The position numbers were made by a program. Source: a plasmid. Taken from it: a stretch of DNA of 64,000 bases. This document shows, piece after piece, positions 19,101 to 22,100 of this stretch. Where the stretch lies: the sequence record NZ_CP095281.1; one strand, 5' to 3'. Every line of letters begins with the position of its first letter. The first letter of the stretch is position 1.

Positions 19101-22100
19101 AGTGCAGTGTGCAATGTGGTTGGCCCTGGGACGTCAAACCTGTATGTCCAGGAGCGGGAGTGAAGTTGTCTTTTCAGCAAACTCCAGGAAAGTGACGGGG
19201 GGCAGTAATGCCTCTTCGGAATATCGCATAGCACTTCAACAGCTAACATCCGTTGGCATCGCAATAGAGTCGGTAAGTGTTCAAGGCATTGAGGCATTTC
19301 GAGCGTGGAAGAAGCAGAGAAACGAGATGCTGCGACAGATGCGACAACGGATCATCGTTACAAAGGAATACGTGCAGGGCGGAATTCTGATGAAGTCCGT
19401 CAAGTATCTTGATGGGTTGCAGAGTAAAGCCGTCGTCACTCGGCCATGCAAGGCCGACGACCATCATTTGTTGAGCTCCACTATCCAAGAACTTCAGGCG
19501 CTGTATGGCGTAGAACCGAAAAACATCCAAGTTCATTGAGCCGGGGCCGGGTTACGTGGCCATAGGGAAAACATGTACAAATTCAAGATTAGGGAAGTCC
19601 GAACGGCGTGTGCGGCAATAGGTTTGGATCCGTTGTCTACACGGCAGATTGTCCAAGTTATGTGCAATGGAAAATCTCAAGCGTCTGTTGCCAAGAAGAG
19701 TGACATCTCCCAGCCAGGCTTACATAAACGCATAGCCAAGGTCAGAGCTGCTCTCGGACTGAAGGGGGGGATGACGGTATTTGTGGGTAAGGACTGTGAA
19801 TTCACGGGTAATCTGTCTCAAATTGCCGCCGCCTTCGATGTGCCCAGGAGGACATTGTCTTGGCATGTCGAAGGGATGAGGCCGGAGAGTGCTGAGATGA
19901 TCCAGGCTCTTGAATCGTTTATCCGCAAACGATCCCCTATGTCGCAGGGTAAATAGGGGGCCCCTTCGGCTCGCGCTAAAGCGCTCGTCCGTCCCACTCG
20001 TCTATGCGGCCGGCTTCGCCGACCGCAGACTCGCCGAGCCCGTTCCGGTCTCGGGCTATCGCTAGGGCCGGATGCCTAAGAGAAATGCAGCCTTGATATC
20101 GCTGTCCGCAAGCGGACCCACCCTCTCCGTAGTAACTGTCCTGTCCCGGGCCGCAAATACGGTTTGGCAGGGAGGGGGGGGAGCCTGCCCCAGGTAAACA
20201 CTCCAAAGAAGTTTCGGCCGACCTGCCACCTTCCCGAATATCAACAACGGAGGGGCGGCCTTATACTCGCTTGCGCTGCGCGCGCTCGTCGGCTCTGATG
20301 GTCAAACTGGTGACATTGCAGTACTGCAAGCATTGAAAGGCGGTTTGCAATCTGCTATTATTTGTAGGTCGGTAAGTGATATCGAACCCGTTGGCCGGGG
20401 TGCGTGGCCAGAGGTGTTTAATATGCAATTTCAGATGTTTTCAGAGCGGGAATTAGCCGTTATGGCTGAGGCCAATCAGATCGCTAAGCGAGCGCTTTGT
20501 GCTCACTCAGAAGCATTTACTTCTCCAGGCGTGGTCAATACGTTTTTGCAAACACATCTCCGCCCGAAGTGCCGCGAAATATTTTGTGCACTTTGGTTGG
20601 ACAATCAACATCGTATGGTCCTCCTGGATGAGGTCTTCCAAGGGACACTGGATAGTTGCACTGTCAATCCGCGAGACATTGTGGTCAACGGACTAAAAGT
20701 CAACGCTGCTGCTGTTATCTTTGCTCACAATCACCCCAGTGGTATAGCTGAACCTAGTAGACAAGATCGGGCTATCACTGAGCGTCTTGTCTCTGCTCTG
20801 TCGCTTGTGGATATCAGAGTGCTGGATCATATCGTCGTAGGTGAACAATGTGTTTCATTTGCGGAGCGTGGGTGGCTGTAAGCCACCCCTATTCATGAGG
20901 AGAAGTGATGGAGATTCAAGCTGTCTATCTGGCTGGTAAGGGGGTGCGCATGGCCCCCCCACAATGGCAGACGCCGACGAGCCAGCAGGTGGAATCAAAG
21001 ATTCATGAGCTTGAGCTCGTAGGCGAACCAGACGTAATGCTCAATGTCTCAAGTGATGAGCTGGCACGCTGGATCTCTGGTGATGCGCAGATTCCATATG
21101 CATGCTGGGTACTGCTGCTCATGCTCACTGGTGAGTCCGTTACATGGTGTTTTGGTCATGACCTGTGCTGAAGTCGTCAAGGGGAAACATGAAATTTATC
21201 ACTGATATCATTGGAGATGAGCCGGAGCTATTGACTCCTCTGATCGCAATGGAGCCGCTGGAGATTGTCGATCTCTTCGATAAAACAGTTGTGTTGTTTC
21301 GATATAAAGCCCCCCCAGGTGGTTGGACACACGAAGCACTGTGCTCACAGAATATCCCGCTTCATAGACTACAGGGAGCCGATGCTTACCTTGGAAATGA
21401 GTGGGTCGGTTCGACAGAGGTGTAATGAAGATAGCGGGCATCTTCAGGATAAATTGCAGTTGCACTTTGTTTCATATCTGCTATTATATGTTGGTCGGCA
21501 CGTAATGCCGAACCCGTCGGCCGGGGTGCGTGGCCATAGGAGGTCTTAAGTATGCAAACTGCAGTTGTAGAGCGTCAGTCATTGAAGGTTCACACCGTAT
21601 CGGCTCAGCATATTCGCCTGCTGAACACCTTGGGCACTGGTGCTATTTTCATGGAAAACCTGGTCTTTTCATTCATGGATAACCTGTGTGCTGAGTATCA
21701 GGGGGGGAGTTGGGAGTATTGCGAGGATTCCCTCACTGGCACATGGTACATGAGGCCCGTCGACACCAGTCAGAGTATCCATATTTCTGTATTTGGGAAT
21801 TTCTTCGACGAAAAGGTTTCGCCGGATGCAGCAGGCGTCATCGTGACACTTTTTGCCTTGAACACGCTGTGCTATCGATTCCAGAACGAGCCCAAGGTCT
21901 TTGAAGCCTTCGAGCGTCTGAAGGAATTTGCTGCAACGCATCAAGAAGGTGGCGCTATCTACAGAGCGATTGACTGACAAAAAGGAGGGGGCAAATGCCC
22001 CCTTCTAGTGTTTGCAGTACTGCAAACACATTGCATTAAGTTTCATTTCTGCTATTATACCTATGTCAGCGATGATTGCTGACCCTGTCGGCCGAGGTGC

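Follow-up and report, generated by a model that had tools for sequence, protein, structure and literature searches.

Within 64,000 nucleotides (nt) of plasmid DNA (record NZ_CP095281.1; hereafter the window), two copies of a GC-rich noncoding element each precede a block of early genes in the putative leading region of a conjugative plasmid. We propose, with a probability of about 0.5, that each copy is a cis-acting single-strand initiation signal on the transferred strand, combining a core that resembles the minus-strand origin of filamentous phages with an accessory module, M1. In general terms, the element probably helps the plasmid to start copying or expressing itself on arrival. What the sequences show directly is the repetition, the homology of the separate parts, the covariation and the one-sidedness of loops and wobbles; the identity of the transferred strand, the minus-origin role of the phage element, initiation and the role of M1 are inferred from them. 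The window is a relative (~90% identity) of pAsa8, a MOBF plasmid of Aeromonas salmonicida. A preliminary description of the same DNA regarded the element as one 334-nt unit and offered two interpretations, an analogue of the single-strand promoters and single-strand initiation sites (Frpo/ssi) of F-like and IncI plasmids or a noncoding RNA (ncRNA). Because BLAST searches against plasmids split the element into parts, we regard it instead as a composite of M1 and a second part, M2-M3, which, judged by their homologs, have separate evolutionary histories.

The two copies (Table 1) are 97.4% identical in a BLAST comparison, with six substitutions between them and a G-run whose length differs by 2 nt. 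Both have sharp ends, beyond which the flanking DNA is unrelated on either side, and their GC content is 64% as compared with 40-51% in the flanks. The left end of copy 1 lies inside the TAG stop codon of an open reading frame (ORF; 19573-19956), and that of copy 2 lies 1 nt past the TAA stop codon of a 76-amino-acid ORF (40432-40662). Each copy is followed by a TTGCAG-N2-CTGCAA palindrome, 26 nt past the end of copy 1 and 36 nt past the end of copy 2, and then by a sigma-70-like promoter. The G-run ranges from 8 to 10 nt across 12 related copies, drawn from the window, from pAsa8 (three copies) and from six loci on five metagenome contigs. The element is considered noncoding because the G-run varies in this way and no ORF is common to copy 1 and copy 2. 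The near-identity of the copies, their similar contexts and their GC-rich noncoding character had been noted in the preliminary description and stand, as does its observation that C.A in one copy faces T.G in the other at a paired position of the hairpin GCGGYCGGCTTCGCCGRCCGC. In pAsa8, a tandem duplication (L135 154-5356 and 6722-11924) of a block with an antirestriction gene, a hypothetical gene, a ParB gene, a methyltransferase gene and a small ORF has led to three element copies.

The M1 family is characterised by the blocks CCTTCGGCTC, TCGTC, CTCCGCCGAA, TTTCGGGC and GCTAGGGTCTGATG together with three variable hairpins and a long-range helix, and both copies match the family model. In copy 1, the three hairpins, one of them at 20006-20026, are enclosed by the long-range helix TCGTC-CGTCCC / GGGCCGGATG. 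M1 matched at least 5000 plasmids in PLSDB from Escherichia, Klebsiella, Enterobacter, Salmonella, Serratia and other genera, 85% of them conjugative, and its hosts include IncI, IncF and pOXA-48-like IncL/M plasmids. We fetched 14 plasmid loci (IncF, IncI-gamma/K, IncL/M, Serratia MOBP, Pantoea and Citrobacter). All 33 M1 instances detected by the hidden Markov model in these loci and the window were oriented like the leading genes (binomial p=2e-10). The fetched loci contain 24 class-1 Frpo/ssi-type units, and M1 lies 20-60 nt upstream, in the sense of the genes, of 17 of them, including Frpo2 and Frpo3 of ColIb and an F-type ssiD homolog in pEC_B24. Its other downstream partners are a class-3-like hairpin in Serratia and M2-M3 in Aeromonas. 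No M1 was found in inoviruses. A contig scan with a degenerate M1 pattern proved too loose, as 79 of the 80 loci listed, out of 120 matched, looked like chance matches in GC-rich genomes; the matches were judged by organism name only, and one Klebsiella plasmid contig was kept.

The folding of M1 is supported by covariation. RNAalifold predicted three hairpins, variable in sequence and length, and the long-range helix TCGTCAGCCCC / GGGTCTGATG from 24 distinct M1 sequences, a sample that is small beside the size of the family. Compensatory changes occur at 10 of the 18 predicted pairs, and 96.3% of the cells are paired as compared with 83.2% in shuffled alignments. The covariation score of 0.347 was not reached by any of 500 shuffles (0.108), and pairing with slid partners gave at most 0.046. 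A hammerhead-like reading of the 3' end of M1 (CUGAUG...GAAA) was rejected on inspection, since stem II is missing and the motif is not conserved.

The M2-M3 part (~200 nt) has matches outside Aeromonas plasmids only in filamentous-phage DNA: pAerXII for M2, and the Aeromonas phage MBa-2020a (Inoviridae) together with 11 IMG/VR contigs that resemble inoviruses in size and gene content for M3. No M3 was found in the fetched enterobacterial plasmid loci, and the M3 sequence set is confined to Aeromonas-type phages. M2 is 75.8% identical to pAerXII 6444-6536, and its hairpin GTCCGCAAGCGGAC shows a compensatory change from T-A to C-G. The M3 homologs were obtained by nhmmer with E-values of 1e-33 to 4e-46, while the M2/M3 family model recovered the two window copies with E=5e-34 and 3e-34, both of which contain the family core AAAGACGGTTTRGCAGG ... 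TTCCAAAGAAGTTTCGGC ... GCCTTATA and the terminal hairpin. Although pAerXII (L144, NZ_MK962692.1; 7.1 kb) was deposited as a non-mobilizable plasmid, it is the replicative form of an inovirus, because it encodes Zot, the replication protein G2P, DUF2523 and small coat-like ORFs, all on one strand. The phage homologs of M2/M3 are intergenic and lie 0.5-0.9 kb downstream of zot in the seven genomes in which zot was located. One inovirus-like contig carries two direct M3 copies about 750 nt apart (L156 3450-3596 and 4197-4349).

M3 also contains a helix with covariation. In the orientation of the phage coding strand, the bases just past TATAA pair with those just before GAAACTTCTTTGG, and two pairs covary (GGCCG/CGGCC, GGCGA/TCGCC and GGCGG/CCGCC). 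The paired cells amount to 93%, with a covariation score of 0.328 as compared with 0.197 in shuffles. Some long stretches of M3 are both unpaired and invariant, for example TTCCAAAGAAGTTTCGGC and CCCTGCTAAACCG, which suggests sequence-specific recognition. The preliminary description had presented the element as structured and rich in local hairpins; the hairpins it named are present, but in the thermodynamic sense the element is not rich in structure, since the energies of the whole element are no better than those of shuffled sequences, as detailed below.

In each of the 13 phage genomes, the plus strand of the plasmid runs antisense to the genes of the phage (p=2e-4), so that the plasmid minus strand corresponds to the gene-carrying phage strand. 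In filamentous phages the gene-carrying strand is the packaged strand, and their minus-strand origin is a hairpin in the intergenic region on which RNA polymerase makes the primer. By analogy, the phage element may provide a host-dependent function on the packaged strand, classically that of a minus-strand origin. A plus-strand origin specific to one Rep was rejected, because M3 spans two unrelated Rep families, occurring with Rep_trans proteins in L183 and L173 and with G2P in MBa-2020a, and is absent from pAerXII, the Rep of which is 75% identical to that of MBa-2020a. An attP site of the XerCD/dif type was also rejected, as the dif-like sites lie elsewhere, at the prophage ends.

The phage homology could be read in another manner, namely that the element is a functionless passenger, left by recombination with a filamentous prophage or belonging to a small mobile repeat and multiplied by segmental duplication. 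The restriction of M2-M3 to Aeromonas plasmids and phages is compatible with such an origin, and so is the tandem gene-block duplication from which the three copies of pAsa8 stem. We consider it quite unlikely because the hallmarks of a miniature inverted-repeat transposable element are missing from the window copies, in which the ends GGGGGCCCCTTCGG / GCGCGCGCTCGT are not inverted repeats and the flanks show no target-site duplication. Moreover, the placement and orientation are fixed, M2-M3 is always fused to M1, and the 12 copies keep long invariant blocks, with substitutions clustered in loops and two patches.

Since Watson-Crick covariation cannot tell the two strands apart, we used asymmetric features to decide which of them folds. 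With DNA parameters, the minus strand of M1 was the more stable one in all 24 instances (mean of -34.4 as compared with -30.4 kcal/mol), with a mean z-score of -1.83 as opposed to -1.15 for the plus strand. Of the short loops, 33 out of 65 on the minus strand and one out of 67 on the plus strand (Fisher p=6e-12) belong to the types C(GNA)G and C(GNNA)G, which are classical motifs of very stable DNA mini-hairpins. In at least 10 of 14 sequences, the terminal loop of M3 reads GAA, GCA, GTA, GAAA, GTGA or GTTA on the gene-carrying strand, and the M3 helices on that strand contain 16 G.T wobble cells and no A.C cell. The asymmetries of loops, wobbles and stability, together with the phage orientation, point to folding on the minus strand, the putative transferred strand. 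On balance, the element appears to have been selected to fold as single-stranded DNA (ssDNA) on the strand that becomes single-stranded. The long-range pairing CGCAAGCG/CGCTTGCG was rejected for lack of conservation; copies a and b of pAsa8 carry CGCCAGCG.

The same asymmetries bear on the ncRNA option of the preliminary description. A structured sense-strand RNA could be either the 3' end of the upstream transcript, acting as terminator or stabiliser, or a leader or ncRNA of the downstream one. The element begins right at stop codons, a terminator-like hairpin with a T-run was called in copy 2 (40983-40995), and some sense loops are UUCG-like or GCAA-like. M1 also has an invariant G.U pair on the plus strand. 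However, loops and wobbles speak strongly for the opposite strand, copy 1 has no T-run, and the plus orientation is antisense to all phage genes. The z-scores for plus-strand RNA folding are not significant. A scan of the whole window with the Rfam 15 covariance models gave no match at the gathering thresholds, and a permissive scan returned only one match, at chance level (E=5.3). A sense-strand RNA is thus very unlikely, and this part of the preliminary description is disfavoured.

The sequence context supports a conjugative leading region for both copies, as previously described. Copy 1 has a small helix-turn-helix gene on one side and, on the other, a block of genes for a RadC-like JAB protein, an antirestriction protein of the ArdB/KlcA type and a ParB-like protein; psiA is close by. 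On the 3' side of copy 2 there are two ORFs of unknown function, an ORF at the position of TrwA, a TrwB-type coupling protein and a TrwC relaxase, as identified with Pfam. The leading-region genes and TrwB/TrwC are all on the plus strand. The usual rule in conjugation is that the relaxase gene enters last, by which the minus strand would be the transferred strand and also the template for the leading genes. A putative oriT nick region was found by inspection; on the minus strand it has the inverted repeat AACCCAT-N3-ATGGGTT 5' of a CTATAG core, and the segment contains the direct repeats GGGTTACGC.

We suggest the following sequence of events. On entry, the minus-strand copies would fold, and their stable hairpins would stay free of single-strand DNA-binding protein. 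A host enzyme, either RNA polymerase or primase, would start an RNA within M2-M3, and this RNA would prime complementary-strand synthesis and possibly double as a transcript. Synthesis would proceed in the direction of the transferred strand's 5' end, entering the neighbouring promoter and gene block, and by turning the early-gene blocks into duplex DNA it would license their ordinary promoters. Priming is the simplest role because both copies lie directly upstream of an operator, a sigma-70 promoter and an early-gene block, although a direct transcript from the element is also conceivable. Transcription from ssDNA is not needed to explain the placement, because an ordinary double-strand promoter follows each copy. 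As to origin, it is possible, though somewhat doubtful, that the plasmid recruited a filamentous-phage minus-strand origin as its leading-region initiation signal and fused it to M1, an optional part of single-strand promoter units. M1 itself would be an accessory three-hairpin junction behind the start site, on the side where upstream synthesis or transcription arrives, and may shield or insulate the initiation hairpins. This role of M1 is plausible because the single-strand promoter hairpin of F has been reported to stall complementary-strand synthesis independently of transcription (bioRxiv 10.64898/2026.01.09.698686).

The stalling by the F hairpin would equally suit a passive single-strand roadblock or insulator, in which hairpins hold up upstream synthesis or read-through and nothing is initiated. 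So would the position of M1 on the arrival side of synthesis, its very stable GNA-loop hairpins on the transferred strand and the failure to find a good promoter. A roadblock, however, would leave unexplained the homology to a phage element that occurs across Rep families, as well as long invariant single-stranded blocks such as TCCAAAGAAGTTTCGGC, which suggest specific recognition. For these reasons a purely passive role seems unlikely, and the initiation model covers the strand-specific loops and the phage homology together better than any of its rivals.

Several results weigh against an initiation signal. The comparison with Frpo/ssi was performed by blastn (word size 7) against 15 published sequences (Samuel et al. 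2024, Supplementary Table 2), and neither the element nor the whole window gave a match with E<1e-3 to ssiD or ssiE of F, Frpo1-3 of ColIb or the class-2 and class-3 cores. Within the published set, blastn matched M1 alone, and this at the distant ends of the windows Frpo*4, Frpo*5 and Frpo*7. No convincing or canonical folded -35/-10 was found on the element. A weak candidate, TTGCGG-16-TACTAC, falls in the 3' arm of a predicted hairpin of ~170 nt with its -10 partly unpaired, and the stability of this hairpin is not above that of shuffles. Its scan score is about that of the known classes and the TTG of its -35 is kept in pAerXII and MBa-2020a, but the -10 is poor and variable among the copies (TACTAC, CACTAC, CACTTC and GACTTC). 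No covariation links the two variable patches that face each other on the arms of the long hairpin, and one copy (L137) is a recombinant of two patch types. Folding energies of the whole element and of its halves, on both strands and with DNA and RNA parameters, do not exceed those of dinucleotide shuffles (z of -0.95 to +1.35), and because they are not significant, thermodynamics alone gives no support. Close to the outer end of its long-range helix, M1 has a G.T pair that is invariant on the plus strand; on the minus strand it would be a C.A mismatch. The transferred strand was assigned from gene order and a nic-like motif only. Finally, the phage element might serve in packaging or in regulation, although a packaging signal would have no obvious use for a 100-kb plasmid. 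Because the element fails the homology test for classes 1-3, we do not file it as a member of the Frpo family. What holds of the analogy drawn in the preliminary description is the position and orientation, the size and composition, the M1 partner and the presence of the remainder in the slot of Frpo; homology and a convincing folded promoter were not found.

The minus-strand TATAAG in M3 is conserved and has no -35 partner. Together with the other conserved blocks and the operator-like palindrome close by, it might indicate that the element works as duplex DNA, either as a set of protein-binding sites or as an antisense promoter, with an effect on the operator and promoter next to it. This is highly improbable, given that TATAAG stands without a -35 and that hairpin covariation and strand-specific loops are not expected of duplex sites.

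Table 1. Coordinates of the element, its modules and related features; positions refer to the window unless a plasmid locus is named.
Feature	Position	Strand	Remarks
Element, copy 1	19955-20289 (335 nt)	minus (putative functional strand)	alignment of the copies; strand from loop motifs and phage orientation
Element, copy 2	40664-41000 (337 nt)	minus	~1.8 kb from the putative oriT
M1, copy 1	19955-20087 (~133 nt)	minus	nhmmer E=5e-25 to the plasmid M1 family
M1, copy 2	40664-40796	minus	nhmmer E=6.6e-25
M1 examples in PLSDB	L129 12005-12151 and 19045-19194; L128 11999-12129; L005 4987-5125
M2, copy 1	20088-20179	minus	hairpin GTCCGCAAGCGGAC; blocks common to the pAerXII intergenic region
M3, copy 1	20148-20289	minus	invariant core TCCAAAGAAGTTTCGGC (20202-20218), GCCTTATA (20258-20265), terminal hairpin
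M3 terminal hairpin	20273-20283		GCGC-TGC-GCGC; C(GCA)G on the minus strand
M2-M3, copy 2	40797-41000	minus	nhmmer and copy alignment
Weak candidate promoter	20129-20156	minus	-35 TTGCGG (plus-strand CCGCAA, 20151-20156); -10 TACTAC (plus-strand GTAGTA, 20129-20134)
Palindrome TTGCAGTACTGCAA and sigma-70 promoter TTGAAA-17-TATTAT	20316-20361	plus	palindrome 20316-20329, promoter 20333-20361; serves the RadC-like gene (20423-20881)
Palindrome TTGCAGCACTGCAA and sigma-70 promoter TTGCCT-16-TATAAT	41037-41082	plus	palindrome 41037-41050, promoter 41055-41082; serves ORF 41131-41721
Putative oriT nick region	42815-42870	minus	CTATAG core similar to the R388 nic site; precedes the TrwA-position ORF, TrwB and TrwC; sequence inspection
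TrwB	43439-45622	plus
TrwC	45626-49075	plus

The window contains further repeated features. A unit found before at least six leading-region genes (18468-18519, 20334-20425, 21460-21551, 22031-22113, 23649-23740 and 41833-41884) combines the sigma-70 promoter TTGCAy-16/17-TATTAT with an AGGAG ribosome-binding site and a conserved 5' leader in which the hairpins TCGGCA-N5-TGCCGA and GGCC-GGGGTGCGT-GGCC occur, which suggests common transcriptional or translational control of early genes. Directly after the ParB-like gene, ten tandem units of ~127 nt with 68% GC (25248-26464) could be centromere-like or iteron-like; the counterpart in pAsa8 is unannotated. Two related GC-rich tandem arrays of 187-197-nt units lie 36 kb apart (12535-13800 and 49150-50450), the second directly past the relaxase gene. 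Perfect 83-bp direct repeats (27052-27134 and 37810-37892) flank a 10.7-kb segment in which ORFs rich in repeats occur (33.4-35.5 kb). Just outside the right-hand repeat there is a transposase gene of the IS1595 family (38283-39212). Taken together, these features look like an insertion that split the leading region relative to pAsa8. Six tandem 99-nt (33-codon) repeats (51668-52459) are located within a TraG_N-family gene (51061-54855).

To our knowledge, three sequence classes of single-strand promoter are known so far, all from enterobacterial plasmids. The Aeromonas element would be a candidate for a fourth type, evolutionarily tied to the intergenic DNA of filamentous phages. Relative to the literature examined, M1 is new as a separate, widespread and covarying unit of the transferred strand, a structured and conserved neighbour of class-1 promoters that occurs in at least 5000 plasmids. 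Full-text searches for M1 sequence strings returned no match, and the Frpo*4 and Frpo*5 windows (Samuel et al. 2024, Supplementary Table 2) contain the end of M1, although none of the papers examined describes it as a unit. Also new are the homology of a leading-region element to an intergenic element of inoviruses, for which a full-text search linking a phage origin to a leading region gave no match, and the one-sided GNA/GNNA loop signature. The occurrence of such loops on one strand only could serve as a simple marker of which hairpin strand folds. If the proposed reading is true, the single-strand entry signals of phages and plasmids would be interchangeable parts, and leading regions could prime first and then use ordinary promoters, as an alternative to transcription from ssDNA. 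The establishment of plasmids in the first minutes that follow transfer is under active study, since this step determines how resistance genes spread and how host defences are evaded.

Known systems offer several points of comparison. The class-1 Frpo/ssi elements of F and ColIb-P9 reportedly go back to work by Masai and Arai in 1997, Bates in 1999, Couturier in 2023 and Samuel in 2024. Like them, the Aeromonas element is ~330 nt long, GC-rich, noncoding and preceded by the same M1 module, but it has no sequence similarity to them, lacks an A/T-rich UP-like apex and clear -35/-10 boxes in the stem, and has a conventional promoter between itself and the gene. Frpo was originally described as an ssi, and single-strand promoters are GC-rich hairpins upstream of leading genes that also affect complementary-strand synthesis (PMC11541004, PMC9849209, PMC12672017, bioRxiv 10.64898/2026.01.09.698686). 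The class-2 and class-3 elements (Wen 2025, PMC12672017; Samuel 2024, Frpo'4 and Frpo*1/3) are likewise sequence-unrelated hairpins upstream of leading operons. In Serratia plasmids, M1 is fused to a class-3-like hairpin, and the 3' motif ACTCGCTTGCGCTGCG is common to this hairpin and the Aeromonas element; only this motif is shared with class 2 and class 3, whereas the boxes -35 CTTGCR and -10 TAAGAT or TAGCGT are absent. Similarity to the G4-/phiX-type ssi signals of plasmids, which depend on primase or PriA, is found in the clustering of stable hairpins, some of them mini-hairpins with GNA loops, on the strand to be primed and in an invariant CTG in the conserved M3 block, a likeness of features alone and not of compared sequences. 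The minus origin of the Ff phages (hairpins B and C) has no sequence similarity to the element, and the assignment as a minus origin is our inference. As in Ff, however, the phage counterpart of the element is a segment of the inovirus intergenic region on the gene-carrying strand, downstream of morphogenesis genes and independent of the Rep type.

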